Source of the DNA: Candidatus Woesearchaeota archaeon
GTDB taxonomy: Archaea; Nanobdellota; Nanobdellia; Woesearchaeales; JAZDKJ01
Assembly (NCBI GenBank): GCA_043803105.1
Contig: JAZDKJ010000007.1
Span: 1 to 34,571, forward strand
Direction of reading: 5' to 3'
DNA length: 34,571 nucleotides
Below are positions 8,510 to 33,651 of this stretch, in pieces. Numbering within the stretch: the first letter of the stretch is position 1; every line of letters begins with the position of its first letter. The notes under the pieces are model-generated. The model had not been told where the DNA came from. It saw nothing but the letters and a program-made list of their open reading frames with translations, and did not search any database. The translations under genes were made by a program, and so were the position numbers.

Positions 8510-9939
8510 CCCATTTTCAGGTAAAGAACATTAGAGTTGGTATTACCTTCAATACCGTCGCGATCGTAGCTAACAAAGGACCTGGAGAGGCTCAAGCCAC
8601 CAAGGATGCTCAGCCTTGAGATGGCACTGTAGGTAAGCACTCTTTCCTCAAAAGGCTCAAGAGTACCGAGTTTCCATTTAAGGATTGTACCCTTTCTCTC
8701 ATGCCTTAACACGCTATCAGGCTCCACCATGCCAAGCTTAGCCTCTTTTTGGAAGTCAAGGAGGTTAGGCAACTTGTCGATGATGTGAACATTCCTTAAA
8801 GACACCTTGCCCCTATTAATAATATCAAGCTGAATCTTTATCTCAGAGATTCCACCATGCTTAAAGGCCACAATCTGGGACGACTTTCTAACAACAATGG
8901 GGCTCCTCAATATATAATACATCGCTGTAACTAGCAAGGCTGCCAGAATGAAAATGACCAAAGGCCAATAGTTGACAGTAACAGTAATCTGCGCTGACTC
9001 TTTAGGACCTAGCACCATAGCCCATTGATAATATTTTTTGCCCTCAAGAGTTACAATCTGAGGTTTTGGGTTTGAATAGGTAAAGATTGCAGAAAGAAGG
9101 CTGCGACGCCAATTAACCGGGTATTGCCTTTCAGCATTGCCGTCATTCTCAAGATTAACCTTGGTAACGGTCTTCAGTATTCCGGATTGGACAGACCTTG
9201 TCTCTATGACCTTGCCATAATCTATGACACTAAAATCCACAGGGAACGAATCGAACTGGTAAGCTTTGCCGTTACGCTTTGTCGAAGCAACAACCTTGAC
9301 TAAGTCTTTTACCGGCGGCTGGTTTGGATCTAAGCTGATGGAGAAGTCAACTGATTTTGCCTCCAAAGGCTTAAGGCTTGTGGTATAATCCTGCTTGAAA
9401 ATACTGCTCGAAACCTCAAGCTCAACCTGCGCAAGGTCTAAGGTATTCTGGTTAACCAGGTCAACTCGAACCTTAAATGTGTTTCTGGGGTCAACCTGCT
9501 CCGGAATGTTTACGTCAAGGTGAAGCGATGGTATGTATTGGCCGAAATTTGCAGCTGAAGATTTTATCTCCACGATTAGTTTTTTTGAAATAACCTCATT
9601 GGTTTCAAGGCCCTTCACATTTAACGTAACACCGTAGAGTCCAGCTTTTGTGTAGTAGTAAGGTGTTACCTTAACAAGGGTCTCGGTGGCTGAGTTCGGA
9701 TAGACCTTGATTATATAGTCCTTTGAAGGCTCGGTTGTGACAACCCACTCAACATCAGGGGAATAAATGGAGTATTGCTCAATGGTTTCCAAAGGGTTCC
9801 TTACAGCAATCCTAAAGACTGCAGTCTCGTTGGCAAAAATCTCATTCTTGATGACACTTACCGAGACACTATGGACAGCAATCGCAAGCGGCGACGCTAG
9901 AAGCAAGAATGCAAGAATCACTATCACTGTCTTTTTCAT
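8506..9939 (-). CDS. exported/membrane protein with Ig-like beta-sandwich domains (cell-surface type)
   Basis: Signal peptide MKKTVIVILAFLLL, beta-rich domains, internal TM helix (YWPLVIFILAALLVTAMYYIL) and a C-terminal Ig-like domain. Confidence 0.8.
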   Translation of the reverse strand: MKKTVIVILAFLLLASPLAIAVHSVSVSVIKNEIFANETAVFRIAVRNPLETIEQYSIYSPDVEWVVTTEPSKDYIIKVYPNSATETLVKVTPYYYTKAGLYGVTLNVKGLETNEVISKKLIVEIKSSAANFGQYIPSLHLDVNIPEQVDPRNTFKVRVDLVNQNTLDLAQVELEVSSSIFKQDYTTSLKPLEAKSVDFSISLDPNQPPVKDLVKVVASTKRNGKAYQFDSFPVDFSVIDYGKVIETRSVQSGILKTVTKVNLENDGNAERQYPVNWRRSLLSAIFTYSNPKPQIVTLEGKKYYQWAMVLGPKESAQITVTVNYWPLVIFILAALLVTAMYYILRSPIVVRKSSQIVAFKHGGISEIKIQLDIINRGKVSLRNVHIIDKLPNLLDFQKEAKLGMVEPDSVLRHERKGTILKWKLGTLEPFEERVLTYSAISRLSILGGLSLSRSFVSYDRDGIEGNTNSNVLYLKMG

Positions 9940-9984
9940 AAGCCCTTCTGGGTTCAAACAGCTTTCACTTGTATATAAATGTTT

Positions 9985-10710
9985 TCAATAATGCAGAGGA
10001 CACTTACATGGAAACCTTGGAGTGCTGGAGAAACTGGTAGTAGGCAGAAGACCCCTTGAACGAATATACTCCTGAACCCATCCCTGGTCAGTTCCCAGTA
10101 GGGCAGCCATTTCGACAGTGGTCTTTTTCTGATGTATCAGATGGTCAAGGGAAGATAGCCTCTGCAGCCTTGGATTTTTCAACAAGAAAACACTTCGCAG
10201 GTAATCTCGCAAAACCCTCTCCTTAATGCCGATAAAAACTCTATAATTGAATTGGCTCTTCAATTCCAGAATCCTTGAAAGCCCCCAAGCAGGCTTGTCA
10301 GCCTCATACAACTCAACAAGCTTTTCGTGGACTAGCTGATTCTTAGTGCTAAAGTAAGCTTGGAGAACATCCCAATCGTGCACAAGATAGGTTGCTCCCA
10401 AAGCCTTGGCGTCATAATCAGACCATTTTGTCATGCTTTCAAACAACTGATATGTATCCTTGACCTTTTTCCTCCTATTGCGCTTGCTTAGGCTTTGATC
10501 ACGGCGATGCTGCTCTTTCTTGAGATAATTAATCCTTTCGATGTCCCACAAATCCGGAAACGCTTCTGCCTGTCTCTCAAGCACCTTCAAAAGGCTGTGA
10601 GGCTTTATTTCTAGATTCTCGACCAGCTGAGAAATGTCTTTTGTAGCATAAATCTCGTGAAGAGTGGAAAGCTGTTTGAGGTTAATCTTGTTATAGTTCA
10701 GCATATTCAA
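9985..10710 (-). CDS. hypothetical protein, possible C-terminal HTH
   Basis: 241-aa ORF; KTTVEMAALLGTDQGWVQEYIR resembles an HTH. Confidence 0.6.
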   Translation of the reverse strand: MNMLNYNKINLKQLSTLHEIYATKDISQLVENLEIKPHSLLKVLERQAEAFPDLWDIERINYLKKEQHRRDQSLSKRNRRKKVKDTYQLFESMTKWSDYDAKALGATYLVHDWDVLQAYFSTKNQLVHEKLVELYEADKPAWGLSRILELKSQFNYRVFIGIKERVLRDYLRSVFLLKNPRLQRLSSLDHLIHQKKTTVEMAALLGTDQGWVQEYIRSRGLLPTTSFSSTPRFPCKCPLHY

Positions 10711-10752
10711 TTAGAATTTCTTGCAATTCTTAAAAATATTTGCCAAAATTAT

Positions 10753-11268
10753 TTAAGGGCTGTGATACGCCATTTTAGCGATTTGAGCGAGAAAAACAAA
10801 CTTGTTTTGCTCTTTCTCCCTTCCATATTTTTCCATTACGTAGGCAACAGCCTTCACTTCGCTGGTCAGCTTTAAGAATTCTAGGTCATTCTTCAAAGCC
10901 TGCTGAATGTCGTTTGCCTTTGCTTGTCCTTCTTTTTTCAAAATTCCTATACAGTTCACGCAAAAGTCAGGGTCACCAAAAGCTTTCTTCTCCTTTTTGC
11001 ACTTCGTGCATAATTCTTCTTCAGAGATTTTTTCTGCCTCTTGTCCAGCAGCACTTAGCAGTTCTTTCATAGCTCTTTCTGCTTCATCTTTGTCAACAAA
11101 GTCTTCTTCAATTATTCTTCTGTAGAAAGTATAGTAGGCATCAAAACCTAGCTTTTGTTGGAACTCTTTCGGCAGTTCCTTGTAAACGTCATAAATTGCC
11201 AAGTCTCTATCTTTCCGGTTTAATAAATAATCCTTAATATGCTTCTTCAAGTCTTGCTCGTCTTCCAT
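10753..11268 (-). CDS. hypothetical protein with a CxxC...CxxC zinc ribbon
   Basis: CTKCKKEKKAFGDPDFCVNC within a charged helical protein. Confidence 0.7.
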   Translation of the reverse strand: MEDEQDLKKHIKDYLLNRKDRDLAIYDVYKELPKEFQQKLGFDAYYTFYRRIIEEDFVDKDEAERAMKELLSAAGQEAEKISEEELCTKCKKEKKAFGDPDFCVNCIGILKKEGQAKANDIQQALKNDLEFLKLTSEVKAVAYVMEKYGREKEQNKFVFLAQIAKMAYHSP

Positions 11269-11481
11269 TGGCGTCTGGCTGCCACGCTTCTTTTGTGTTG
11301 TGTTATGGGTTTTGGTATAAAAATCTTCCCTAATCTTTTTTCCAAAACATTCTGAATCACAAAGGAGTCATATATACTCTTGAACAAAGAAAGGGAGAAA
11401 ACAAAACTGGCTTAGAAAGGCTGTAACCAAAGAATTTATAAGAGTTAGGCGTTTCGCAAAGGAGCGTAGCAAAGCTACAAT

Positions 11482-11494
11482 TGGGGCTGTAGTG
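11482..11494 (+). repeat. 13-bp copy of the tRNA-Pro 5' end (putative att site)
   Basis: TGGGGCTGTAGTG is identical to 13022-13034 and is preceded by a BRE/TATA-like AAAGAATTTATAA at about 11429-11441. Confidence 0.65.
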
Positions 11495-11541
11495 CTGCTC
11501 AGCAGGCTGAACTGCGAAGCAACAAATATTGATGAGCGAAT

Positions 11542-11826
11542 TTAGCACCAATGGCTGTAGGCAGTATCATGATGCTGTAAGTCCTCAAAACGGATAATCT
11601 TTTTCTGGCCATCAATCTTAAAGATAAGAATAAAGTGATTGTCTATATGCACCCTTCTGAATTGTTTCAGGTCATAACACAGGTTCTTGTAATGCTCAGG
11701 CTCTTCAGAATTGATTATCTCATCAATCTTCTTCATCGTGGCCTCATAGCGAGCCCTGTCCTTTTTGAACAGCTTTTTCAGTATCTTGATGAGTTTGTCG
11801 CTTCTTTCAGAACTATACACGCTCAA
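11542..11826 (-). CDS. RelE/ParE-superfamily (YafQ-like) toxin
   Basis: Basic protein of about 93 aa with HYKNLCYDLKQFRRVHIDNHFILIFKID...HHDTAY. Overlaps the antitoxin; alternative GTG start at 11820. Confidence 0.88.
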   Translation of the reverse strand: MSVYSSERSDKLIKILKKLFKKDRARYEATMKKIDEIINSEEPEHYKNLCYDLKQFRRVHIDNHFILIFKIDGQKKIIRFEDLQHHDTAYSHWC

Positions 11827-12055
11827 TCTCTTTCCTCAAGTCAGCAATGCTGGAAAACCGCTTGAAATTTCCCTTGTCTATCTTCAACAACTCTTCCCTA
11901 TACTCAGGCCTAAGCTTCGGCTCAAGCATCTCTTCCTCAAACTTTTTTATGACAAAGTTCACAGCCTGGGACTTGTTCTTGAAGCCGTACTTGCCCTTGA
12001 CAATGTTCAAAACCCTGTCCTCATGCTCACCAAAATTAACAATCGCTTGCGTCAT
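11813..12055 (-). CDS. antitoxin (DUF2683-like, RHH)
   Basis: MTQAIVNFGEHEDRVLNIVKGKYGFKNKSQAVNFVI...LEPKLRPEY, directly upstream of the toxin, with a GAGGTTGA SD. Confidence 0.85.
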   Translation of the reverse strand: MTQAIVNFGEHEDRVLNIVKGKYGFKNKSQAVNFVIKKFEEEMLEPKLRPEYREELLKIDKGNFKRFSSIADLRKEIERV

Positions 12056-12124
12056 TTTATCAACCTCAAGATAACAATGTATTATATTTTGTTACTGTTA
12101 ATTATTAAACATAATGAATTATTA

Positions 12125-12305
12125 TATAAATCTTCCTGTCCAAAAAAGCTCTAAGAACTCCCCGACATCTTTTTTTGGAGAACCACTTTGGATCCTTGTG
12201 GCAATTTTTTAGGAATTTTCTGATACAGAACAGGTAAGTAATCACAGTCCTGTGGCTCAGCTTCCTCCTGAGCATCTCTTTCTTCATAGCTTCTAGAACA
12301 TCCAT
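12125..12305 (-). pseudogene. truncated tyrosine recombinase (N-terminal SAM-like domain only)
   Basis: MKKEMLRRKLSHRTVITYLFCIRKFL matches the integron/Xer-type integrase N-terminus. Removing one A from the A7 run (12170-12176) continues the frame as SKKDVGEFLE. No catalytic domain follows. Confidence 0.7.
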
Positions 12306-12502
12306 AAGAAATCTCGTGTACTGAATCTTAAAATATGTGATGCAGGAAAAAGAGAATAATTTTCATCTTATCCGAAAAAACTACCGATTAAATTCACTTG
12401 GAAGTTACAATACTTTTTCTAATTTGGTCATCACAAAACATCCCTCCCAGAGCCCCGGAAACAAGAATCCTTGGTTTTTCGTTTATATGTTGTTAAATTC
12501 AA

Positions 12503-12866
12503 TTGCGAAAAGAGGCGTCAGAGTATTTTTCCGTATTTTCCTAGAATCTCTCTTACTTTGTCTGCGTAATTGTCTGGCAAAGGTGGTTTGACACATGAGA
12601 AAATGATTTTCACAGAGTATTGTCCAAGTCCCCAGCCTCGTTTGCCCATAAAATCTACTGGTACAGCAATCCATTCTCTGCTTGGTTCACGCACTTTTAT
12701 TTCAAGAGTTTCGGTGTGAAAACAAATATAAGGGCATAGTTCGAAGGCCTGTAGTGCTTTCCGACCCTCATCGAATTCGACATTAAACTCCAAGTCTTTG
12801 CCTTCATCCATAACAAATGAAGTTTCTGCTAGGCTTATAAAGATTCCTCGTCGCCTCTTTTCGCAA
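12503..12866. repeat. perfect 15-bp inverted repeat flanking one ORF
   Basis: TTGCGAAAAGAGGCG (12503-12517) and CGCCTCTTTTCGCAA (12852-12866). Confidence 0.85.
12518..12811 (-). CDS. hypothetical protein (cassette-like)
   Basis: 97-aa ORF with a TTTATAA box about 25 nt upstream; its stop codon abuts the inverted repeat. Confidence 0.7.
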   Translation of the reverse strand: MDEGKDLEFNVEFDEGRKALQAFELCPYICFHTETLEIKVREPSREWIAVPVDFMGKRGWGLGQYSVKIIFSCVKPPLPDNYADKVREILGKYGKIL

Positions 12867-13022
12867 CTTCAACGGTGCTCACTTCGTTGCGCTCCTCGAT
12901 CTTCCTCGCTGTTGCTCGTCAGAGAATTTAACACGATTAGTTCATCGCAACCTTTTTAACGCCTTGCCAGTTAGCCGTAGCAGGAAGGTCATACAACAGT
13001 GTGGCTTTCCACTTCAACCTAT

Positions 13023-13290
13023 GGGGCTGTAGTGTAGCTTGGACAGAACAAGCTTGGTCTTGCTCTGGAGATACTATCACTCACGCTTGGGGAGCAATCC
13101 CAGAATGCGTGCAACCGGAGTTCGAACAGCTTTTTTTGCTTCGCAAAAACCCAAAGAAAACCGAGGGTTTTCTTGGGCCCATCCGAATTGTTGAATTCGG
13201 ATAGGGAACCTGGGAAAAGGCTTTTTTCCTCGACGGAAAAAAGAACGGTTTTGCAGCGTCAAGAGAAGCTCGAAAGTCTTCGCAGCCCCA
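13023..13290 (+). tRNA. tRNA-Pro(GGG) with three introns (D-loop about 13043-13073; 37/38 at 13093-13105; 59/60 at 13127-13276)
   Basis: The spliced 74-nt sequence GGGGCTGTAGTGTAGCTTGG|CTATCACTCACGCTTGGGG|TGCGTGCAACCGGAGTTCGAA|TCTTCGCAGCCCCA folds as a complete cloverleaf. BHB-type motifs occur at the junctions. The D-loop boundaries are the least certain. Confidence 0.9.
13127..13276 (+). other. 150-nt structured BHB intron at tRNA position 59/60
   Basis: Strict BHB: TTCG/CGAA central helix, AA|C and AG|T bulges, outer helix AGCTTTTTTTG/CAAGAGAAGCT, plus several internal hairpins. Confidence 0.85.
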
Positions 13291-13669
13291 TTTTTTTTCT
13301 ACCAATTGGTGACTAGCAAAAGAGCTTAAGTCAAAGCTTGACAGTTTCTTCGAGTCGTAGGGTATGTCTTCAAACAGCATATTTCCTGCAAAAAAGAATA
13401 ACCTATTTTCTCTTGAACTCTTCTAGCCAATGTCCATAAAGTCTTAACAGATTGCCCATACAGGTCGTTATGGCTTGCCATTATAGTTATCATATTATAT
13501 AAATGATACCGAGGTAAAAGAGGTCTGCACATTCTCAGTGGATAAGATTATTACGCCGAATCTAACTGGCCTGCGACGAGATGATAGATAAGAAAGATAT
13601 TTCTGAATACAAGTTATTTCCTTTTGACAAGAAGAATTGAATCTCAACAAATAACTTCTTATTTATTGA

Positions 13670-14143
13670 TTATTTCTTGACGCGATTTAGTTTGAGAAGC
13701 TTTTCGCTAGTAATGTTCAAAAAGACGTTCTGTTCCATTCGCGCAAGATATTCTGACGCTATCGTGATGGTACCGAGGCCTTTCACGGAAGATTTGACGA
13801 CAAGGTCCTGAATAGTGTTGGTCTTTGGCACGAGATTGACCGCTTCCACAGTGCCAATCTTTCCACCTTTAACTCCAAACACAGTCATTCCTTTCAAGCG
13901 AAAAGAGGGTTCGATGGTAAGAAACACGGCGTATTTCGTAACTTCTCGAATGTGGTCTGACCCAATAAGAAATCCTTTTCGCATAAAACCTTTATCGACG
14001 GATATACCCACAACTTTCAAGGTCTTTGGATGGATATAGAGTTTGTCGCTAACTCCAAGAAACGCTCCTCGCGAATCTATAACATCCTTGCCAAGCACAT
14101 CTTCCGATGTTATAACGCCCTTAATGCTGGGATTTTCGGTCAC
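13670..14143 (-). CDS. PRC-barrel domain protein (two domains)
   Basis: DVLGKDVIDSRGAFLGVSDKLYI and LKGMTVFGVKGGKIGTVEAV. Confidence 0.85.
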   Translation of the reverse strand: MTENPSIKGVITSEDVLGKDVIDSRGAFLGVSDKLYIHPKTLKVVGISVDKGFMRKGFLIGSDHIREVTKYAVFLTIEPSFRLKGMTVFGVKGGKIGTVEAVNLVPKTNTIQDLVVKSSVKGLGTITIASEYLARMEQNVFLNITSEKLLKLNRVKK

Positions 14144-14597
14144 GTTTTAGTTGCTCGTAAGTTTTTGAAAGAATGATGGAAGTTCCGAGGTGTTCGATGT
14201 CGGCGTGGCGCACCTCCATTGTTCGGAACCATCCGCGGCTGACAGTGAGTGACGCAACGCGATTTGTTTCACTAACGCGGTGCACTTTTATTGCAGTGCC
14301 CACTTTTTTGCCATCGTGACTGACCACTGTGCATCCTTCAAAGAGCGTTGCAGGTTCAATCGAAAGAATGACGGCTTGTGGTGTCATCACATTAACGTAG
14401 GTGATACAGATATACTTGTCTTCTTTGAAGAATTTTCGAACAACGATTCCTTCAACATAGTATTTTTTTTTGTTGAAGTGAACAGCCTTTACTCGTCCGA
14501 GCACTGCGCCAGATTTTGTGAGTACTCGCTTGCCAAGAATATCTTGTATTCGAAGGGTTTCATCAACGGCACTTGCTTTCTCAACAAACACTTCCAT
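14121..14597 (-). CDS. PRC-barrel domain protein (two domains)
   Basis: DILGKRVLTKSGAVLGRVKAVHF and FEGCTVVSHDGKKVGTAIKV. Confidence 0.85.
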   Translation of the reverse strand: MEVFVEKASAVDETLRIQDILGKRVLTKSGAVLGRVKAVHFNKKKYYVEGIVVRKFFKEDKYICITYVNVMTPQAVILSIEPATLFEGCTVVSHDGKKVGTAIKVHRVSETNRVASLTVSRGWFRTMEVRHADIEHLGTSIILSKTYEQLKRDRKSQH

Positions 14598-14651
14598 GAA
14601 AATAGTTGAATGGTAGGGTGTTTAAAAATGCTTTGGTGTTTGCAAAAGTAA

Positions 14652-15260
14652 TTAGTGCACAAAGTAAACAAAGGTCGCAATTGCAATGAGTTTCACAATA
14701 ACTGCTAGCATAAGAAAAAAGAAGAGTCGTTTTGCATTGTATTTTACGATACCAAGACTGAAACTGAGCACGTCGCTTGGGGCCGGAACAAGATTCATCA
14801 GAATGATAGCATACGCGCCATACTTATTTACTTTTCTGCGTATTGCATGTATTTTCCTTGTCGAGAGAAGATATACTACTTGTTGACTGAGTTTCCAGCC
14901 AGTGAGATAGCTAATTGCACTTCCAATCACGAAACCAAGGAGCGCAGCTGCCATCGAGAGAAGGACAGGATTGCCTTGCTTTAAGCCAATATAGAATGTG
15001 AGTTCAACCGGAGCAGGAACAGGAATGAACACTATACCGCTTATGATACCAAGAATAAACTGCTTGAGTGGCGTGATGTCGTGCACGATGTCGGGCGTAT
15101 AGCGTGAATAAAATGATTCTGAACTAACTTTACCGTTCACACGCCCATAGTTTACTGCTGCAATAACAAGGCCGCTTATTATAAGAACAATCATCACAAA
15201 TAACGCAACAACTCGTTTCACTTGATTGTTGGAGGTTTCGTGAACAAACGTGTGTGACAT
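14652..15260 (-). CDS. DedA/VTT (SNARE-associated) family membrane protein
   Basis: FIPVPAPVE, GSAISYLTGW, KYGAYAIILMNLVPAPSDVLSFSLGIVKY. Confidence 0.85.
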   Translation of the reverse strand: MSHTFVHETSNNQVKRVVALFVMIVLIISGLVIAAVNYGRVNGKVSSESFYSRYTPDIVHDITPLKQFILGIISGIVFIPVPAPVELTFYIGLKQGNPVLLSMAAALLGFVIGSAISYLTGWKLSQQVVYLLSTRKIHAIRRKVNKYGAYAIILMNLVPAPSDVLSFSLGIVKYNAKRLFFFLMLAVIVKLIAIATFVYFVH

Positions 15261-15343
15261 ACACGAGCGCAGCCCTGGTCGTATTTAATTATGTTGATTT
15301 GCCTAATGTGCAAAGTGTTATTTTAGATAGAAGCGGCGCCTAA

Positions 15344-15392
15344 TCTTCGCAGCCCTATTATTTTTCTACCAATTGGTGACTAGGCAAAGAGC
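15344..15392 (+). repeat. attR-like copy of the tRNA-Pro 3' end and trailer
   Basis: TCTTCGCAGCCCTATTATTTTTCTACCAATTGGTGACTAGGCAAAGAGC versus 13277-13325. Confidence 0.88.
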
Positions 15393-15452
15393 ATGAATTT
15401 TTTCCAAAGATTTATAAGCGGGGACCAAGCGAGAAAATAGTTGGTGATAAGT

Positions 15453-17201
15453 ATGAAAAAAGCATTTCTGTTTTTATTGACATCTTTGATTTTAGCGAGC
15501 ACAGTTCTGGCTGCTTCAGTGACTATAGGGCCTGATGGGATGGGTGCCTATAATTCGTGGACCAACCAAGGCCGCACAGCAGCAACTGAATGGCAGTGCG
15601 TTAACGAGGCAACTGCGAACACAAGCGATTATGTTTACACCAACGGAAAGAACACAAAGGAAAGCTTTAGCTACTCTAACTCAGGCCAGAGTGGGTATAC
15701 GATTAACAGCGTAACCTTGTATTATTATGCAAAATATTACAGCAGCTCAAAATACAAGATACAGCCGATGATCAGAAGCGGCGGGACAAACTATCTCGGA
15801 AATACATTAACATTAACTTCAGGCTATGCATCTTATAACCAACAGTATAACACAAACCCTGCAACAGGAAGCGCCTGGACTTGGGCACAGGTTGATGCGC
15901 TTGAGGCTGGAATGAATTCTTACAATTCAAACAATGGCGGTGGTTATGTGGCCCAGACCTATGCGGTGGTTGCCTATACCATCCCAGATTCTTGCAGCGA
16001 TACAGACGGAGGAAACAATATTGTTATCCTAGGTACAACTTCAGGCATAAAAAATGAAGCATCTTACAGCGACACCGACTACTGCGTGGACAGCTCTAAT
16101 GTGTTTGAATACTATTGCTCAGGAACGCAAGAAACAAGCCAACAGCAAAGCTGCGGAACTGATGGTTACGGAAGCAATTATTGCCTTGGCAACGCGGTGT
16201 ATCACAACTACACTGACTATTCCTGCAATGCGGGAGCATGCGCTCATACGCACACACCTGAACTTGTCCAGACCTGCGGAGCCGACCAGTATTGCTACTA
16301 TGGAACTTGCCGTTACTCTGACACATGCAGCGACACTGATGGAGGGGACGTACCCTTGGTTTTTGGAACCGTTTCCGGGTATGCTTATGGTTATCCATAC
16401 AGCGTTGACGATAAGTGCATGGGAGACAGCAACCTAAATGAGACTTACTGTTATGGAACTCAAAAGGCAATACACTTCCAAAGCTGTGGAACTGATGCAT
16501 ACGGCAGCGCTTACTGCAGCGATGATGATGTGTACAAGGATTACACTGACTATTATTGCAGCGGAGGAGTGTGCGACTCAGACACCACACCAGAACTGCA
16601 GCAAGACTGCGGAACAGATGGATACGGAGCAAACTTCTGTGTTGGGACCCAGGTCTACCATAACTACACTGATAATTATTGCAGCAGCGGAGCGTGCGGC
16701 TATTCAATCACGCCAGAGCTTGTTGAAACATGCCTGACAGGGCAGTACTGCAGCAGCGGAGCATGCCATTGGACAAACTCTTGTAGCGACACAGACGGAG
16801 GAGTGATGCCCAACATATTTGGGACTGTGAGCGGCTATTACAGCGATGCATCTTACAGTTATGATGACTTCTGCAATACAAGCGCTCAGTTGAAGGAGTA
16901 TTGGTGCAATGGTGCCTTGGCTAAACTGTCCAGTCAGACCTGTTCTTATGGCTGCGCTGACGGCAAATGCAATCCTGCACCTGATTCATGCACTGACACA
17001 GACGGTGGTATAGTACCCCTCATAGGCGGAAACACCTACGGATATTATCAGGGCAATTTTTATTATAACCCTGACCTCTGCTTGAACGGCACAGCCTCCA
17101 TGATGACAGAGTGGTATTGTTCTGGGACCAGCAGCAACAGCCAGGATATCGACTGCAATTCCAACGGAACAACGTATTGCACACAGGGCCATTGCGCCTA
17201 A
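15453..17201 (+). CDS. secreted Cys-rich repeat protein (CxDTDGG repeats)
   Basis: Signal peptide, GGTGA SD, four CxDTDGG modules and three CGTDxYG..C...VY..YTD..C..G.C....TPEL...C modules. Confidence 0.9.
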   Translation: MKKAFLFLLTSLILASTVLAASVTIGPDGMGAYNSWTNQGRTAATEWQCVNEATANTSDYVYTNGKNTKESFSYSNSGQSGYTINSVTLYYYAKYYSSSKYKIQPMIRSGGTNYLGNTLTLTSGYASYNQQYNTNPATGSAWTWAQVDALEAGMNSYNSNNGGGYVAQTYAVVAYTIPDSCSDTDGGNNIVILGTTSGIKNEASYSDTDYCVDSSNVFEYYCSGTQETSQQQSCGTDGYGSNYCLGNAVYHNYTDYSCNAGACAHTHTPELVQTCGADQYCYYGTCRYSDTCSDTDGGDVPLVFGTVSGYAYGYPYSVDDKCMGDSNLNETYCYGTQKAIHFQSCGTDAYGSAYCSDDDVYKDYTDYYCSGGVCDSDTTPELQQDCGTDGYGANFCVGTQVYHNYTDNYCSSGACGYSITPELVETCLTGQYCSSGACHWTNSCSDTDGGVMPNIFGTVSGYYSDASYSYDDFCNTSAQLKEYWCNGALAKLSSQTCSYGCADGKCNPAPDSCTDTDGGIVPLIGGNTYGYYQGNFYYNPDLCLNGTASMMTEWYCSGTSSNSQDIDCNSNGTTYCTQGHCA

Positions 17202-17257: not shown

Positions 17258-17830
17258 TTGATGGTAGGCAATCCGCCCAAATTCAACAAATATGATGTTC
17301 TAAGATGCTTGCTGGGAATACAAAAGGATATTTCAAGACTTGATCTTGGAAGATTATTGGAGCTTGGAGAGGGTACGGTGAGAACTATACTTGACATACT
17401 AAAAATTAAGAGGCTAATTGACTCAGACAGGCAAGGGCACACCCTTACTGCCAAAGGAAAGCAGACAAAGGAGAACCTTGCGGCAGAATTCGAATTTATT
17501 GAAATAGCTAAGACAAAGGAACTCGGAGGAAAGCACACATTTGCATTCAAGATAAGGAATGAGAGAAGACTCGAGGTAGGGTACAAGCAAAGAGACATCG
17601 CAATCAAGAACGGGGCAGAAGGGGCTTTACTAATGGTCTATGACAAAGGATTGAGGATGCCTGGAATAAGCAGGTTTGATGTTCAGCTATACTCCTCAAT
17701 ATTCGAGCTGACAGATTATGACATACTGGTTGTATGCTCTGCAGCCACAAGAAGAATGGCAGAATGGGCGGGGATTGCTGTGGCTGAATCGCTGAACGGC
17801 AAGGTGAAAAGGATATTGAAGATGTTCTAA
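17258..17830 (+). CDS. winged-helix protein (DUF4443/DUF2111-like)
   Basis: SRLDLGRLLELGEGTVRTILDILK...GHTLTAKG wHTH, followed by QRDIAIKNGAEGALL. Confidence 0.75.
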   Translation: MMVGNPPKFNKYDVLRCLLGIQKDISRLDLGRLLELGEGTVRTILDILKIKRLIDSDRQGHTLTAKGKQTKENLAAEFEFIEIAKTKELGGKHTFAFKIRNERRLEVGYKQRDIAIKNGAEGALLMVYDKGLRMPGISRFDVQLYSSIFELTDYDILVVCSAATRRMAEWAGIAVAESLNGKVKRILKMF

Positions 17831-17835
17831 ATTTG

Positions 17836-19287
17836 CTAGTAACTTTTACCGAAGTAAACCATAAAAGATGCTTCCTTGCCGCAGTAAACGCACTTCTTGC
17901 CCTTGATGCTTGGCTGTTTCAATGGGATGTTAAGCGCCTTTGCACCACCAGCCTTGTCCTTGATCAAATCCTCGCACTCAGAATTATCGCAGTAAGGCGC
18001 AAGGACTATCTTATTATTGTCGACGGCATTCTTTAATTGCTCAAAGTTTGAAGCCTCAACTACGGTGTCGTGCATCAACTTTTTTGCTTTGTCAAAAAGG
18101 CTCTTTTGAATGTCGTCCAAAACCTCCTTGACTGTGTCTTTCAAGTCGGCAATTGGGACTGGCTGCTTCTTGGAAGTGTCTCGCCTGACTAACATTACCT
18201 GCCTCTTCTCGATGTCTTTTGGGCCGATCTCAAGGCGCAAAGGAACTCCCTTGAGCTCCCACTCATTAAATTTCCAGCCGGCAGAATATTCGTCGCGGTC
18301 GTCTAAGATAACGGAGAACTGTTTTAAGGCATCTTTAAGCTCTTTGGCTTTCTTAAGGGTGGCTTCCTTAGTTTTTTCGAAGATAATAGGAACAATGACA
18401 ATCTGGGTTGGGGCAAGCATTGGAGGCAAAACAAGGCCTTTATCATCACTGTGTACTGCAACCATGATGCCTATCATCCGTGTTGTAATGGCAAAAGTGT
18501 TCTGGTAGGCAAACTCCAGATTCTCAGCCTTGTTGATGAATTTGATATCGAAAGCTTTAGCAAAATTCTGGCCATCATGGTGGAAATCAGGTCCTTGAAT
18601 CGCTTTGCCGTTAGGAAGCACATGCTCAAATGAAATTGTGTATTCTGCCCCTGCAAACTTTTCCTTGTCAGTCTTCCTGCCTATGAGAGCGGGCAGGGCC
18701 ATGTAATTCTCGGTCACATCCTTGTAGATGCTGATGATTTCGTCAGCTTCTGCTTCTGCCTCTTGCTTTGAAGCAAAGACCGTATGTCCTTCATTCCAGA
18801 GGAACTCTCTTGTCCTTAAGAAAGGCACAGGGTGCTTGAACTCCCACCTGACGACATTGTTCCACTGGTTGAGCCGCAAGGGCAAGTCACGCCAGCTCCT
18901 GATCCATTTGGAGAAGCTCTCGTACATTATGGTCTCTGAAGTAGGCCTTATCGCCAATCTTTCATTGAGCTTTGTGTCACCTGATTCAGTCACCCAGGCA
19001 ACCTCAGGGCTAAAGCCTTCCATGTGCTCAGATTCCTTTTTCAAGAGCCTTTCAGGGATAAAAAGAGGGAAATAACAATTCCTTATGCCAGATTTGCGGA
19101 AGTCAGAGTCAACCTTTGACTTAATCTTTTCCCAGATATCATAGGAGTCAGGCCGAAAGACAATGCAGCCTGAGACAGAGCTATAATCTGCCAAACCAGA
19201 CTTGATGATGAGCTGCTGATACCACTCAGAGAAATCATCAGACTTCTTTACTGTTATGCCAACTTCAGACTCTTCCTTTTCAGCCAT
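17836..19287 (-). CDS. proS: prolyl-tRNA synthetase, archaeal/eukaryotic type
   Basis: DDFSEWY, AIRPTSET, FLRTREFLWNEGHT, C-terminal zinc domain ending FGKSY. Confidence 0.98.
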   Translation of the reverse strand: MAEKEESEVGITVKKSDDFSEWYQQLIIKSGLADYSSVSGCIVFRPDSYDIWEKIKSKVDSDFRKSGIRNCYFPLFIPERLLKKESEHMEGFSPEVAWVTESGDTKLNERLAIRPTSETIMYESFSKWIRSWRDLPLRLNQWNNVVRWEFKHPVPFLRTREFLWNEGHTVFASKQEAEAEADEIISIYKDVTENYMALPALIGRKTDKEKFAGAEYTISFEHVLPNGKAIQGPDFHHDGQNFAKAFDIKFINKAENLEFAYQNTFAITTRMIGIMVAVHSDDKGLVLPPMLAPTQIVIVPIIFEKTKEATLKKAKELKDALKQFSVILDDRDEYSAGWKFNEWELKGVPLRLEIGPKDIEKRQVMLVRRDTSKKQPVPIADLKDTVKEVLDDIQKSLFDKAKKLMHDTVVEASNFEQLKNAVDNNKIVLAPYCDNSECEDLIKDKAGGAKALNIPLKQPSIKGKKCVYCGKEASFMVYFGKSY

Positions 19288-19390
19288 GCAAAGCCTTAAT
19301 TGTGTGCTTTATAAAAATGTTTTGACTGGCACAACCAATAATGTTTTTAAGTAATACGAGATTCGCATTGTCAAGGAAATTGGAATCAAA

Positions 19391-19708
19391 ATGAAAGAGC
19401 AACTACAACCAATTGATTTGTCAACCGCAACTATAGATCCCGAACTTGTTAAGGAGCTGGAAAATATAGTATTTGGAGATTTTTGCGCCCGTCGTCATGT
19501 GGCAGACTACTTTGGCATGGTTCCTATTAGGTATGTAAACGATAAAGCAATAGAGGTTGCCCTGAGCTATGAACCTACAAAAAGGCAAGCAGATAATATT
19601 ACTAAAGTCCTGAGCAATCTTACAGGCAGGGAGAAAATCATCTTTAGGATTGCCTCTCAAGAGCAAATAGACCAGGCAATTAGCAAATACTACTCTCTTC
19701 TTTTGTGA
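19391..19708 (+). CDS. stand-alone GspE/PilB N-terminal (T2SSE_N-like) domain protein
   Basis: VADYFGMVPIRYVNDKAIEVALSYEP...LSNLTGREKIIFRIASQEQIDQAISKYY matches the typical pattern of this domain. Confidence 0.7.
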   Translation: MKEQLQPIDLSTATIDPELVKELENIVFGDFCARRHVADYFGMVPIRYVNDKAIEVALSYEPTKRQADNITKVLSNLTGREKIIFRIASQEQIDQAISKYYSLLL

Positions 19709-19729
19709 ACCAAAAATAAAGAGAAAAAA

Positions 19730-20260
19730 TTATCTCTTGTTCCCGAAATAAAAGAACTTATCCAAAGCAACATCATCAGACTTATACGAGCCTGACCTTG
19801 GATGATCAACAAGGGCTGGCCTCGGCTGCTCCATTGGCGAGGTGAATCCCCTAGGATGCTGCACAACCTCTGGCTGAGGCATAGGTATGACTGTGTCCTT
19901 TGTGCTGTCAATCTCCTCAGGCTTGATGTGCTTTGGCGCCTGCTGCTTTATTCCCTCAACAGCCTGCCAGAGCTGCTTTAACTCAGACTTCAAGCTCTCA
20001 TGGCTTTCTGATACCCTTTTGAGCTCGTTGTTCAACCCTTCAGAGGCATTAGCCAGGTGGTGGCGGATGCGCTCATCAATAAGCTGGCGCACCCGATCAC
20101 CCTCCTTAGCTAAAACTACTGATGCGGTTGTTTCGGGAAGGCCTTCCTCATACACATTGCCTGCCATCGCTACAGCATCGTCAAAACTGGAGGCTGCACC
20201 TGTCCTCGTCAACTCCTTAATCATGAAGTTGAGCTTCTTGGTCTGTTCTATATCAATCAT
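19730..20260 (-). CDS. hypothetical coiled-coil protein directly downstream of ftsZ
   Basis: Starts 10 nt after the ftsZ stop. Coiled coil, Pro-rich linker and an aromatic C-terminal tail DVALDKFFYFGNKR. Confidence 0.75.
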   Translation of the reverse strand: MIDIEQTKKLNFMIKELTRTGAASSFDDAVAMAGNVYEEGLPETTASVVLAKEGDRVRQLIDERIRHHLANASEGLNNELKRVSESHESLKSELKQLWQAVEGIKQQAPKHIKPEEIDSTKDTVIPMPQPEVVQHPRGFTSPMEQPRPALVDHPRSGSYKSDDVALDKFFYFGNKR

Positions 20261-20270
20261 CTTGGAGCAC

Positions 20271-21302
20271 CTAAACTGTTCGAATGCCCAATTCGCTGTG
20301 GAAACTCTTGGCCTTCTGAAAGCTCTCTTTGCTTGAAGGCTTGCCCAAAATCCACGGTGACTTCACTCCTGTGATGATGGTCATGACGCAAAGTTTGCCC
20401 TTCATCGCGTCATTGACACGTGCGCCCCAGATTACATTAGCATCCTCGTCAAGGTTCTTTGTCACTGCATTTCCTATGTCCTCAACCTCATCAAGGGTCA
20501 TGTCAGGCCCGCCTTCAATGTGAATCAAGGCGCCTGTAGCACCTACATAGTTGATGTCGAGCAGCGGGTTTGATAGCGCACCCCTCACAGCCTCCTCAGC
20601 CCTATTAGTTGTGTCTGAGAAGCCTACTCCAATGGCAGCTACTCCGCCTTCGCTCATTATCGCTTTCACGTCAGCAAAGTCGAGATTTACCAGGCTTGGG
20701 ACTGCAATAGTCTCGACAATACCCCTAATCATTGTTGAAATAAGTTCGTTCGCAACAGCAAAAGCCTGCTGAACTGGCAGATTTCCTGCAATGTTGACAA
20801 GCCTGTTGTTGTCTATCACTATAACGGTGTCTGCAACCTGCCTTAACTGCTGAAGCCCAAACTCTGCCTTGTCTATCCTTGCCCTTTCAATATTGAAAGG
20901 CATAGTAACTGTTCCTATAACAATAGAGCCTGATTCCTTGGCAATCTTTGCAATAACTGGTGCGGCTCCTGTTCCAGTGCCACCGCCCATTCCTGCGCAG
21001 ACAAAGGTCATGTCGCAATTCTTCAGAAGCTCCCTTATCTCGTTAAGGTTCTCTTGAGCTGCTGCAGCTCCCTTGTCTGGGAAACCACCGCATCCGAGGC
21101 CTCTTGTTACATTTTTTCCTATCAAAAACTTGTAATCTGCATTAGTGATCTCCAGGTGCTGCTTGTCGGTATTGCACGCCAAAATCTTTGCTCCCTGCAC
21201 TCCTTTCCTGTAGAGCCATGAAACCATATTGCATCCAGCGCCACCGCAGCCGATAACTTCGATATTTGCTGTTCCGACCTGGAGTTCGAATCCTTCTACC
21301 AT
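20271..21302 (-). CDS. ftsZ: cell division protein FtsZ (FtsZ2-like)
   Basis: GGGTGTGAAP tubulin motif; PFNIERARI and PSLVNLDFAD resemble the FtsZ2 clade. GAGGTG SD precedes ATG 21302. Confidence 0.97.
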   Translation of the reverse strand: MVEGFELQVGTANIEVIGCGGAGCNMVSWLYRKGVQGAKILACNTDKQHLEITNADYKFLIGKNVTRGLGCGGFPDKGAAAAQENLNEIRELLKNCDMTFVCAGMGGGTGTGAAPVIAKIAKESGSIVIGTVTMPFNIERARIDKAEFGLQQLRQVADTVIVIDNNRLVNIAGNLPVQQAFAVANELISTMIRGIVETIAVPSLVNLDFADVKAIMSEGGVAAIGVGFSDTTNRAEEAVRGALSNPLLDINYVGATGALIHIEGGPDMTLDEVEDIGNAVTKNLDEDANVIWGARVNDAMKGKLCVMTIITGVKSPWILGKPSSKESFQKAKSFHSELGIRTV

Positions 21303-28569: not shown

Positions 28570-29231
28570 ATAAGTTCTAGTTTGACTAATTCGTTCTTTA
28601 ACTGTTTGCTGTTCTTGTAAAGGATTACGTGCATGCCCATCGATTTTGCAGCCTTCACGTTCTCAAGAACATCATCTATAAATAATGCTTCGTCAGGCTT
28701 GTAGCCTTCTTCAATGAGCACATGCTGGAAGCCTTTTCGTGTTGGCTTTCTTAAGCCGATTTCTGGTGAGTTGTAAGCCTTATCAAAAATCTCAAAGAGG
28801 TCTTTCCTTTTCCTCCAGTATTCTGTAATCTCAGGTTCCTGATTTGAAAAACAGATAACTCTGGCTTTGTTCTTCATCCTGTTTATGATTGTTAGCACAT
28901 TATGGTCAAGTCCGGTGGATGTTCTTATGTAGGCAGACAGATGTTTCGCAATGAGCTTAGTTGGCTTGTGGCCTTTCCCGAGCTTTTTGGCAATTTGTCC
29001 GTACATCTCAAGAAGGCTGCTTTTACCAACCTGGACTCTTGGAAGATATCCCTTAGTTAGCTTTGTGAATTGTCTGACAGAAATCCCTAACTCTTCAGCT
29101 ATGGCCCTGTCTATCAAATGACCTTTCCACAAGACAAGAACCTTACCCAAATCAAAAATAACTAGCTTTATCACAGAACTGTGTTCATCTACCTTGTTTA
29201 TAAAACTTACTCCGGGCTTGAAACTAGTCAA
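28566..29231 (-). CDS. HAD-superfamily hydrolase
   Basis: [18 protein letters not shown]...NVKAAKSMG. Confidence 0.9.
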
Positions 29232-30501: not shown

Positions 30502-30535
30502 ACTTATTAAACCTGACTTCTCCTCTTTGGTTTGC

Positions 30536-30757
30536 GCCGTGGTGGCACAACCTGGTACTGCGCAAGCCTGGAACCTACGTTCGAAAGCTTGTGGCCGCAA
30601 GGCTTTCCCGGACAGCTTTTTTCCATAGGAAAAAACCTGGGAAAAGACATCGCTTGTTTAAGCGAGTTTGTCTTTTTTCATGGTATTCGAGAGAATGGCT
30701 GGGGGAATTCAAAGGTCTTGGGGCAACGCCCCGGACAAGAAAGTCCGGGCCACGGCG
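30536..30757 (+). tRNA. tRNA-Ser(GGA) with three introns (37/38 at 30574-30585; 53/54 at 30612-30707; 59/60 at 30714-30743)
   Basis: The spliced 84-nt sequence GCCGTGGTGGCACAACCTGGTACTGCGCAAGCCTGGAA|AGCTTGTGGCCGCAAGGCTTTCCCGG|TTCAAA|TCCGGGCCACGGCG forms a cloverleaf with a long variable arm and G73. A TTATTAAA promoter lies about 25 nt upstream. Confidence 0.9.
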
Positions 30758-30769
30758 TTTTACTTTCAA

Positions 30770-31045
30770 TTCAGCGCCCAGACAGGGAGTTTGGCGTTAA
30801 ATTGGGAGACCATCGTTCCCCCTCGGCGTTACACTCTGGATATAACGCCCAAGGCAGTCAGGACCTGAACTCGCAGTTCAAGTCCGCATTTGGGCTTTGT
30901 ATCATGACAAAAACGCTTCAGTTTGAACGATGGCGTTGTATTATGGTTTAAAAGCAGGGCCGCGGCGTCTTATCCCTGTTTCAGCGCCTGCCAAGGTTGG
31001 GATTTGCATTAAGGGATGAAATCCCGACTCAGGCTCTGAAGCCTC
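30770..31045. ncRNA. putative structured non-coding element between tRNA-Ser and the integrase
   Basis: Pairings AGACAGGGA/TCCCTGTTT, CCATCGTTC/GAACGATGG, internal hairpins and a long hairpin at 30980-31040. No family recognised. Confidence 0.35.
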
Positions 31046-33456: not shown

Positions 33457-33651
33457 ATGGAATGCGTAATCTGCAAAAAAGAGCTCAATCAGGATGAGCT
33501 TGAAAACATAAACGAGATTTGCTTTGACTGTCAAAGGATTCTGGAATGGATTTACCAAGAGCAGGATTACGAGGATAAGCCAGAGAGGCTTGAGGCTGTT
33601 GTTGATTACCTGAAAAACCAGAGAGGTGATGATAATGGCAGAGACAAATAA
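33457..33651 (+). CDS. small CxxC zinc-finger protein
   Basis: MECVIC...ICFDC; GGAGGT SD. Confidence 0.7.
   Translation: MECVICKKELNQDELENINEICFDCQRILEWIYQEQDYEDKPERLEAVVDYLKNQRGDDNGRDK

Follow-up and report, generated by a model that had tools for sequence, protein, structure and literature searches.

The 49-bp direct repeat associated with the tRNA-Pro(GGG) gene of this archaeal genome is most likely the mark of an insertion at the tRNA 3' end that has since decayed. The reading that we favour, at a probability of about one half, combines this insertion scar with two apparently independent habits of the genome, namely the placing of introns at tRNA position 59/60 and the starting of tRNA 3'-end duplications at positions 59-63, which would meet at a splice site. 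The coincidence of these two habits mostly explains why the edge of the repeat falls where it does.

The tRNA-Pro(GGG) gene, with three introns, occupies positions 13023-13290 of the window, which is the whole stretch of 34,571 nucleotides that was analysed. Its exons were mapped by hand reading because ARAGORN and Rfam, run on the whole window, found no tRNA (Table 1). When the four exons were joined in a script, a canonical 73-nt cloverleaf was obtained, which ARAGORN called tRNA-Pro(ggg), and among 410 deletion variants tried on the gene, 204 were called tRNA, mostly Pro(ggg). The precursor folds with a z score of -4.86, none of 200 shuffled sequences folding as well. At the 37/38 intron, the anticodon stem CACGC/GCGUG is accompanied in this fold by an inner helix. 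No canonical bulge-helix-bulge appears at the D-loop intron in the minimum-energy precursor fold; here the mature join was fixed by comparison with G001, the only same-genus genome (84% complete), whose tRNA-Pro(CGG) has a D arm without an intron, and with the metagenome relative L078, which has an insert at the same site. Upstream, positions 12943-13043 are 89% identical over 101 nt to the region preceding tRNA-Pro(CGG) on contig C6, with a 62-nt core that is 97% identical. Outside promoter, stub and gene, no paralogy was found between the C6 locus and the present one on contig C7.

Table 1. Features of the tRNA-Pro(GGG) locus (window coordinates).
Feature	Position	Strand	Basis or remark
5' stub of tRNA-Pro, then the hairpin start CTGCTCAGC	11482..11499	+	Begins 1.54 kb before the tRNA gene
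RelE/ParE-like toxin gene and DUF2683 gene, probable toxin-antitoxin pair	11542..12055	-	
Possible integrase N-terminal fragment, 66 aa, outside the repeat-bounded segment	12105..12305	-	Pfam PF13495
Probable promoter or leader, conserved upstream of tRNA-Pro genes	12943..13022	+	Similarity to C6 tRNA-Pro(CGG) upstream region
Exon 1: acceptor 5' strand, D stem 5' strand, D loop	13023..13042	+	Hand reading, exon join
D-loop intron, 32 nt	13043..13074	+	Ends inferred by comparison
Exon 2: D stem 3' strand, anticodon stem 5' strand, anticodon GGG, G37	13075..13092	+	
Canonical-position (37/38) intron, 13 nt, relaxed bulge-helix-bulge	13093..13105	+	Hand reading, fold
Exon 3: anticodon stem 3' strand, 4-nt variable loop, T stem 5' strand, T loop to A59	13106..13126	+	
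T-loop (59/60) intron, 150 nt, canonical bulge-helix-bulge, hairpin modules	13127..13276	+	Fold, family alignments
Exon 4: T60, T stem 3' strand, acceptor 3' strand, discriminator A	13277..13290	+	
Proximal repeat copy: exon 4 and 35 nt of 3' flank	13277..13325	+	
Lrp/AsnC-type regulator, C-terminal fragment, frameshifted (pseudogene)	13475..13631	+	tblastn
PRC-barrel protein, 157 aa	13670..14143	-	Pfam PF05239, E = 2.7e-8
PRC-barrel protein, 158 aa	14121..14597	-	Pfam PF05239, E = 2.7e-13
VTT/DedA-type membrane protein, 202 aa, first operon gene	14652..15260	-	Pfam PF09335, E = 1.7e-12
Distal repeat copy: dead 3' stub, C72 now T	15344..15392	+	Preceded by AA at 15342-15343

The position of the last splice site follows from two observations. 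In the minimum-energy precursor fold, the bulge-helix-bulge of the T-loop intron runs from the T stem through a 4-bp helix (UUCG/CGAA), which has a 3-nt bulge on either side (AAC and AGU), into an 11-bp inner helix; in L078, the T arm and the acceptor end form one unbroken stretch that equals the spliced form. Therefore, the first base of the last exon is position 13277. The sequence-only reading had placed the beginning of the direct repeat exactly on this base, and the exon map, the fold and L078 all bear this out.

The two copies of the repeat are 49 nt long, 45/49 identical (92%) and spaced by 2067, and comprise the last 14 bases of the tRNA-Pro(GGG) gene and the 35 bases beyond it. These are the only two copies in the 1.56 Mb genome (blastn, E of about 1e-11), and in a Smith-Waterman scan of the window the distal copy scored 82, whereas the best of 30 shuffled repeats reached 34, and no third copy was found. 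The 35-nt flanking part is partially similar to the flank of the paralogous tRNA-Pro(CGG) gene. The 19-nt core of the repeat had no match in viral contigs and a single one in genome contigs, in a coding region of a contig labelled Melainabacteria and not at a tRNA end; this match was taken as chance, since about four chance matches were estimated for that collection.

Between the copies, a segment of about 2 kb carries a frameshifted fragment of an Lrp gene and a VTT/PRC-barrel/PRC-barrel operon. The Lrp fragment corresponds, in two frames, to residues 133-185 of a protein from a genome of another family (G026), to whose DNA it is 74% identical over 179 nt, the similarity continuing beyond the stop codon; to a gene on contig C5 of its own genome the identity is 69% over 78 nt. 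In other families the operon is an ordinary chromosomal one, its VTT/PRC/PRC gene order being present in 7 of 11 loci fetched, and no flanking repeats were seen in the six of these 11 loci that were examined. Matches to the PRC2 protein were obtained in 38 of 301 genomes of the order (a tally that includes the unpublished genome G205), with a best identity of 45%, and the VTT protein was not found in G001. Judged by the affinity of the Lrp fragment, the patchy occurrence of the operon and the lack of VTT in G001, the cargo may have been acquired; against this, the G+C content of the segment (0.42) does not depart from that of the genome (0.43).

No integrase or replication gene was detected between the repeat copies by Pfam analysis of the three genes, and tblastn with the four integrases of this genome gave no match in window positions 9000-16000. 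The cargo proteins yielded one 26-residue match in viral contigs and nothing else. A casposon-like or transposon reading was dropped, as no terminal inverted repeats were seen by eye at the island ends. Upstream of the tRNA gene, the integrase-like fragment at 12105-12305 scores 24.2 bits with PF13495, under the 27-bit cut-off, shows 23% identity to the genome's own Xer-like protein (blastp, E = 0.007) and has no PHROG match.

Four integrase-family genes above the Pfam cut-off are present in the genome. Three of them are large (418-438 aa), and each of these lies about 80-360 nt downstream of a tRNA, on the same strand; the 59/60 insert is clear in two of the three tRNAs, and in the third (window 30534-30757) an insert is seen in the T region. 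The large integrase genes are situated at window 31119-32375, on C10 from 28832 and on C6 from about 521255. The integrase element on contig C10 is bounded by a perfect 17-nt repeat, with copies 36 kb apart, which starts at tRNA position 63 and extends 6 nt past the tRNA end. Given this start, the exchange falls downstream of the splice site rather than on it. Position 63 is likewise the start of a candidate 12-nt repeat for the C6 element, which is weak (E = 0.2 within 81 kb). Further 3' stubs have their first base at about 63 (window 30951), about 47 and about 59 (C6:303.9k) and 61 (G001). Overall, tRNA 3'-end duplications begin at positions 59-63, with one exception near 47. As a separate observation on length, the 49-bp repeat, which reaches 35 nt past the tRNA, is long for an attachment (att) core when compared to the 12-17 nt in two integrase-bearing elements.

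The other habit concerns the introns. An insert at position 59/60 was found in 18 of 25 tRNA-like genes of the genome, as counted by a custom script that missed some tRNAs. The hairpin modules of the tRNA-Pro(GGG) T-loop intron are common to at least eight other tRNA introns, and the intron of an unrelated tRNA on contig C12 shares matching blocks of 25/25 and 45/47 with the C7 intron, the latter being 57 nt longer. Near-identical introns occupy position 59/60 in tRNAs of different identity. Neither the C12 tRNA nor tRNA-Pro(CGG) on C6, both with 59/60 introns of the same family, has a 3'-exon repeat nearby. The insert is lacking in the tRNA-Pro of G001 and in three of the six tRNA-Pro genes next to ProRS in metagenome loci (L054, L078 and L082).

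These data bear directly on the proposal of the sequence-only reading that the element integrated at the T loop of an intron-less allele, with tRNA identity from A58 onwards, and that the intron arrived later at the crossover site, where it was perhaps kept for disrupting the att site. The insertion itself finds support in the repeat, the Lrp fragment, the patchy operon and the integrases. The later arrival of the intron is not supported. The AA before the distal copy does match the spliced form, but over exactly 2 nt; the frequency of AA in the window is 0.10, so that such a match is expected about once in ten cases by chance, and farther upstream no similarity is seen, the 12 nt before the distal copy matching the spliced form at 4/12 positions and the genomic, intron-containing form at 2/12, where chance gives about 3/12. 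The self-copying of the intron family appears recent in the C12 comparison, and set beside 45/49 for the repeat this would make the intron the younger of the two; however, the difference between 2/72 and 4/49 mismatches is not significant, and the two sequences are differently constrained. The relatives whose tRNA-Pro lacks the insert are compatible with a late gain, but inserts of this family are the rule in the genome, whether an island is present or not. In addition, the repeats of the integrase elements start 3 nt inside the last exon, so that a 59/60 intron leaves their core uninterrupted, and the tRNAs adjacent to integrases carry inserts of their own. For this last reason, no protection is visible of the kind supposed in the further claim that tRNA introns shield attB sites. 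All together, we regard a later intron at the crossover site as unlikely.

A different origin of the repeat is suggested by the places where the modules of the intron family occur outside introns. They lie between a tRNA 3' end and its stubs at C6:303.8k, and between 5' stubs and tRNA starts at C6:187k, C8:119.7k and C10:28.5k. The tRNA-Pro(GGG) gene has a comparable 5' stub upstream, at 11482, which together with its hairpin start is 25/26 identical to a stub on C6. The repeat could accordingly be a target duplication made by small hairpin-module elements, with the cargo entering between the copies later and without any island integrase. Some likeness to module A is seen in a TTTGC..GCAAA hairpin that precedes the distal copy by 29 nt, although 97 of 2000 shuffles score as well. 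Against this, no recognisable module abuts either copy, the sequence upstream of the distal copy is not significantly similar to the C7 and C12 introns (1546 and 1648 of 2000 shuffles, respectively), the junction regions are single-copy in the genome, and a second insertion exactly between the copies is needed. A duplication of this kind is improbable on present evidence.

The distal copy could also be the 3' part of a dead second tRNA-Pro(GGG) gene that broke at 59/60, the 5' part being perhaps a paralog on contig C6. At C6:405405-405297 there is indeed a tRNA-Pro(GGG)-like sequence that stops at A59; it shares the D-loop and anticodon intron sites, its anticodon is mutated (GAG), and its exons agree with those of the live gene at 53/59 positions, a value similar to the 45/49 found between the repeat copies. 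The hexamer AGAAGC occurs 2 nt after the A59 of this paralog and 9 nt before the distal copy, and at its frequency of 4.3e-4 per position it is expected in any 15-nt window with a probability of about 0.0065. This hexamer was noticed post hoc, however, and the two pieces lie on different contigs with no link between them. The distal leader GCCT cannot pair with UUCG, which leaves no 4-bp trans-splicing helix, and for the same reason the distal copy was rejected as the 3' half of a split (trans-spliced) tRNA. A broken second gene is consequently very unlikely.

It may further be asked whether the element brought the intron with it, by the route proposed for the 24/25 intron of tRNA-Thr in Caldiarchaeum, in the account given in PMC3293823. 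The attP would then have consisted of intron and last exon, and the original intron-less 3' end would have been left behind as the distal copy, which has in fact no intron before it. Such a route requires an exchange upstream of the intron, yet the tRNA identity there amounts to just 2 nt, and the intron is 97% identical in shared blocks to the resident C12 intron, which fits a local origin. We consider this course highly improbable.

In a more general scheme, position 59/60 would be a breakpoint at the DNA level, and the introns, the stubs starting at 59-63, the paralog truncated at A59 and the att repeats of the resident integrases would all derive from one recombination system that acts on the T loop and last exon. 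If this were true, the introns would be non-autonomous insertions that owe their survival to a splice motif formed by chance from their ends, and the tRNA-Pro locus would be a preserved intermediate in which tRNA introns and fragments arise together. We judge such a common origin decidedly unlikely.

Comparison with relatives was limited by distance. The closest genomes found have a ProRS identity of just 53-64% and lack the locus, and none of them is related closely enough for intron and island to be placed in order; searches gave no empty site, no excision product and no element with a matching attP. In G001, tRNA-Pro(GGG) was not found with three patterns, nor was the 483-aa upstream gene, and its ProRS contig is syntenic solely with window positions 17258-21239 and ends 1.2 kb further on. 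The cargo genes are absent from all 80 metagenome loci kept around ProRS, where tRNA-Pro genes close to ProRS are of the CGG type and differently arranged.

Under the favoured reading of a decayed insertion, the 49-bp copies would be the attL-like and attR-like scars of about 2 kb inserted at the 3' end of tRNA-Pro(GGG). We infer that an integrase acted here, most likely a tRNA-targeting tyrosine integrase of a kind still present in the genome. The insert would have decayed since, being left with no integrase, a broken Lrp fragment and an intact VTT/PRC-barrel/PRC-barrel operon, while the proximal copy would complete a working tRNA and the distal copy would persist as a dead stub. The T-loop intron is an ordinary member of the hairpin-module family and is predicted to be removed by the splicing endonuclease, for which the genome has one gene (PF01974, 96.8 bits).

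In conclusion, the locus has the appearance of a worn scar left by the insertion of an ordinary mobile element. A scar that abuts a splice site is a useful test case both for the idea of introns shielding att sites and for that of elements delivering introns, and the evidence in this genome points to a plainer picture, in which two frequent habits meet in the T loop. The genome is a good test system, in which introns at 59/60 are pervasive, three integrases with readable repeats adjoin tRNA genes, and tRNA stubs are numerous.

Among known systems, the cis-mobilisable elements of bacteria are att-flanked remnants of integrative elements that lost their integrase. Similarly, attachment-like repeats flank a recombinase-less cargo here, and related integrases occur elsewhere in the genome; the present repeats are, in comparison, 8% diverged, with two mismatches in the stretch that corresponds to the cores of integrase-bearing elements. 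For archaeal elements of the pNOB8 type, which keep their integrase whole, the account in PMC3293823 describes insertion into tRNA genes that restores the tRNA and leaves its end duplicated as a direct repeat. Like these, the insert described here is bracketed by a direct repeat that contains the tRNA 3' end, and tRNA-adjacent integrases on the same strand are present in the genome; unlike them, as far as they are described there, it has no integrase between the copies, and its 49-bp repeat includes 35 bp beyond the tRNA and starts at an exon boundary.

A parallel in layout is tRNA-Thr(GGU) of Caldiarchaeum subterraneum, where, according to the account given by Sugahara et al. (2012, PMC3293823), a multi-intron tRNA and, about 2 kb from it, a partial tRNA copy are situated around an insertion; those authors explicitly tie integration, intron gain and the dispersal of pieces of tRNA together. 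The tRNA-Pro(GGG) locus shows the same layout. In Caldiarchaeum, as described there, the partial copy is a 5' piece and the insert has a recombinase, whereas here it is the 3' end and the insert is without one; alleles with and without the insert coexist in one population, whereas no second allele was found here; and the intron lies inside the exchanged part, whereas here the repeat begins just after the intron.

The hypothesis of Randau and Soll (2008), as cited in PMC3293823 and PMC4090602, holds that tRNA introns or splits block integration. The present locus resembles the situation envisaged in those citations in that an intron adjoins an attachment-like repeat, and differs in that the repeats lie wholly in the last exon and its flank, with no protection visible from position 59/60. 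Finally, families of transposed tRNA introns have been reported in the Thermoproteales (Fujishima et al. 2010, as summarised in PMC4090602), and as in that summary, near-identical introns occupy the same non-canonical position in tRNAs of different identity. In contrast to the families summarised there, those of the present genome belong to another lineage and are made of short hairpin modules that also occur beside duplicated tRNA stubs.

The two copies of the 49-bp direct repeat that bracket the roughly 2-kb insert beside tRNA-Pro(GGG) are 45/49 identical, lie 2067 bp apart and are the only ones in the genome. Their alignment scored 82, compared with at most 34 in 30 shuffles, and the window holds no third copy. 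Specifically, the repeat begins at the first base of the last tRNA exon (13277), as the sequence-only reading had proposed; the exon map bears this out, and the placement follows from the fold motif of the T-loop intron and from metagenome relative L078, in which an identical T arm and acceptor end run uninterrupted.

The four exons, read by hand, join exactly into a canonical cloverleaf of 73 nt, and the minimum-energy fold of the precursor reaches -106 kcal/mol (z = -4.86), a stability equalled by 0/200 shuffles. The T-loop intron folds into a canonical bulge-helix-bulge, in which a 4-bp helix (UUCG/CGAA) separates two 3-nt bulges, AAC and AGU, with the T stem on one side and an 11-bp inner helix on the other; the same motif was sought in the D-loop intron and could not be demonstrated. 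When the two downstream introns were removed, 204/410 variants with a single deletion in the D region scored as tRNA, for the most part Pro(ggg).

Coordinates of the features at and around tRNA-Pro(GGG) and of the candidate integrated elements (window positions unless a contig is named)
Feature	Position	Remark
tRNA-Pro(GGG) gene, four exons	13023-13290	hand reading
Exon 1	13023-13042	
D-loop intron	13043-13074	ends set by comparison with the same-genus genome G001 and L078
Exon 2	13075-13092	
Exon 3	13106-13126	
T-loop intron, 150 nt	13127-13276	between A59 and T60
Exon 4 (last)	13277-13290	
Proximal repeat copy	13277-13325	
Unique sequence, 117 nt		first part of insert
Lrp/AsnC regulator gene, C-terminal fragment		frameshifted; after the unique sequence
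VTT/DedA membrane protein gene and two PRC-barrel genes		strand opposite to the Lrp/AsnC fragment
Distal repeat copy	15344-15392	
Second multi-intron tRNA (long-arm type)	30534-30757	T-region insert
Diverged copy of its 3' end and flank	about 30951-31012	~200 nt downstream
Full-length 418-aa integrase gene	31119-32375	after the stub at ~30951
Membrane protein gene and DNA methyltransferase gene	after 31119-32375; 33626-34387 also listed	reaching contig end
C10 candidate integrated element, ~36 kb	tRNA 28590-28733; integrase 28832 onward; repeats 64631-64647, 65627-65641	contig C10

The distal copy is indeed preceded by AA, a dinucleotide with a frequency of 0.10 in the window. Of the 12 bases upstream of this copy, 4 agree with the spliced form and 2 with the intron form, where about 3 would be expected by chance. 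We therefore conclude that the likeness of the distal copy to the spliced junction is at chance level, and the initial reservation that a 2-nt match is weak proved justified. Both repeat copies share an identical stretch of 23 nt (13295-13317 and 15362-15384), within which, directly after the T-run of the tRNA terminator, lies a perfect 10-bp palindrome (ACCAATTGGT) that might serve for protein binding or for crossover.

The genome comprises 1.56 Mb in 13 contigs, the window being the entire contig C7 (34.6 kb), and its archaeal-type ProRS, splicing endonuclease gene and bulge-helix-bulge introns are consistent with an archaeal host. ARAGORN and Rfam both returned 0 tRNAs in the window; over the whole genome ARAGORN found 5 and the Rfam model gave 17 matches at E <= 10, 6 of them above the cut-off. 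Standard finders detect just 5-6 tRNAs in this 96%-complete genome because most of its tRNA genes carry non-canonical introns. A custom script that looked for a T arm and an acceptor pairing, and allowed an insert bearing a 4-bp helix at 59/60, recovered 25 tRNA-like genes, 18 with the insert and 7 with none; these counts are lower bounds, some tRNAs having been missed, and a looser version gave 49 candidates, obvious false ones included.

Blocks of the tRNA-Pro(GGG) T-loop intron recur across the genome. A C12 tRNA, also interrupted at 59/60, shares blocks of 25/25 and 45/47 identical bases and lacks the 57-nt hairpin pair; tRNA-Pro(CGG) on C6 carries a shorter relative, and the same short hairpin modules build the T-loop introns of at least 6 further tRNAs. 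As neither the C12 tRNA nor the C6 tRNA-Pro(CGG) has a copy of its last exon nearby, the intron position follows the habit of the family and not the presence of the island. Among the tRNA-Pro genes of relatives the 59/60 insert is variable: G001 lacks it, and of the six tRNA-Pro genes seen beside ProRS in metagenome loci, those of L073, L081 and L100 carry it whereas those of L054, L078 and L082 do not. The shared intron blocks are 70/72 identical compared with 45/49 for the repeat copies, a difference that is not significant between sequences under different constraints; it hints that the intron copy may be the younger.

Position 59/60 may alternatively be a breakpoint at the DNA level, and several observations are compatible with this hypothesis. 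The hairpin modules of the T-loop introns also sit between tRNAs and stubs, that is, duplicated partial tRNA ends. A 5' stub of tRNA-Pro(GGG) with a hairpin start lies 1.54 kb upstream of the gene (25/26 identical to a C6 stub), the interval holding a RelE/ParE pair as well as a fragment weakly resembling an integrase, and the distal copy is preceded, at 29 nt, by a hairpin similar to a module of the family (p ~ 0.05). On C6 (405405-405297, minus strand), a truncated pseudogene resembling tRNA-Pro(GGG), its anticodon now GAG, ends exactly at A59 and lies 1.4 kb upstream of the live tRNA-Pro(CGG); its exons are 53/59 identical to the live tRNA-Pro(GGG), similar to the repeat, and the hexamer AGAAGC adjoins both its end and the distal copy. 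Before this pseudogene stands another 5' stub, 12 nt long, together with a hairpin.

Four integrase-family genes exceed the Pfam cut-off in the genome, one Xer-like and three large (418-438 aa); each large one lies directly downstream of a tRNA gene, and those tRNAs on C10 and C6 both carry a 59/60 intron. The part of the window from 30534 to the contig end probably represents an integrated element whose attachment scars lie in tandem, its 3' stub starting at about position 63 with an alignment that takes in the last 4 intron bases (AAAG). In the C10 element, a perfect 17-nt repeat, 36 kb apart, runs from tRNA position 63 to 6 nt beyond the tRNA end, with a second copy of 15 nt 1 kb further on; the C6 element has a weak candidate repeat of 12 nt (E = 0.2), at a distance of 11 kb and likewise beginning at position 63. 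The 3' stubs behind the intron-free tRNA at C6:303.8k begin near positions 47 and 59, and the one at G001 tRNA-Pro(CGG), which has no T-loop intron, begins at 61. Thus, 3'-end duplications in this lineage start in the last T-loop bases or the 3' strand of the T stem, intron or not, and the tRNA-Pro(GGG) repeat, which starts at T60, falls within this range.

Further stubs were seen at these loci. A 5' stub and hairpin element stand immediately before the C10 tRNA. At C6 303770-304000 the intron-free tRNA is followed by two module copies in reverse orientation, each ending at a duplicated tRNA 3' end, which is a perfect repeat of 28 nt for the first and a shorter, decayed one for the second. On the minus strand of G001 contig C49 (L003), a 5' stub of 23 nt at about 2058-2036 derives from a tRNA-Pro of GGG type and lacks the D-loop intron; at about 770-680 tRNA-Pro(CGG) has a second copy of its 3' end 68 nt downstream, preceded by sequence whose last bases (CTTGAAG) resemble the end of an intron.

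Between the copies, G+C is unremarkable. The Lrp/AsnC fragment there shares 74% identity across 179 nt with a genome from a different family, the likeness extending beyond the stop codon, and 69% across 78 nt with this genome's own intact gene on C5. The VTT/PRC/PRC order recurs in 7/11 loci fetched from other families; flanking repeats were absent from the 6 of these 11 that were examined, and Rfam placed a tRNA near just 1/11. The second PRC-barrel protein has matches in 38/301 genomes of the order (a tally that takes in the unpublished G205), with a best identity of 45%, and the VTT protein was not found in G001 (84% complete). Beyond the distal copy, 15441-17201 encodes a secreted protein of 586 aa that is rich in Cys and contains internal repeats (333 and 123 nt); two PHROG families with no assigned function match its N-terminal part, it has paralogs on C5, and its gene is absent at the syntenic place in G001.

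All together, we give about even odds (roughly 0.5) to the reading that the 49-bp copies are scars of an insertion at the tRNA-Pro(GGG) 3' end, probably made by an integrase, after which the insert would have decayed; the repeat edge would meet the splice site through the overlap of two independent habits. Against an integrase scar count the lack of an integrase between the copies, the length of the repeat, which reaches 35 nt into host-native-looking flank, and a cargo that elsewhere is an ordinary chromosomal operon; an empty site, a circle and a matching attP were also sought, and none was found. Of the original interpretation, integration into an intron-less allele followed by intron arrival, which is thus partly supported, the insertion scar at the tRNA 3' end is retained, while the intron site is mostly explained by family habit and the AA match stands at chance level. 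No genome close enough to put intron and insertion in sequence was found; the closest (ProRS identity 53% for G001 and at most 64% for metagenome loci) lack the locus.

In a full-text literature search we found no paper on T-loop introns beside attachment repeats in Woesearchaeota, which is not proof of absence. According to Sugahara et al. 2012 (PMC3293823), a two-intron tRNA-Thr and a tRNA fragment 1.8 kb away from it lie around a recombinase-encoding insert; the authors propose intron gain via an intron-carrying attP and cite Randau and Soll 2008 for attB protection. Yoshihisa 2014 (PMC4090602) summarizes that hypothesis as well as the report of intron transposition by Fujishima et al. 2010, and a 2026 preprint on Asgard tRNA introns found no general arrival route. 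In conclusion, the locus offers another instance of things already described: insertion scars at tRNA ends, bulge-helix-bulge introns at non-canonical positions, and intron families that transpose.
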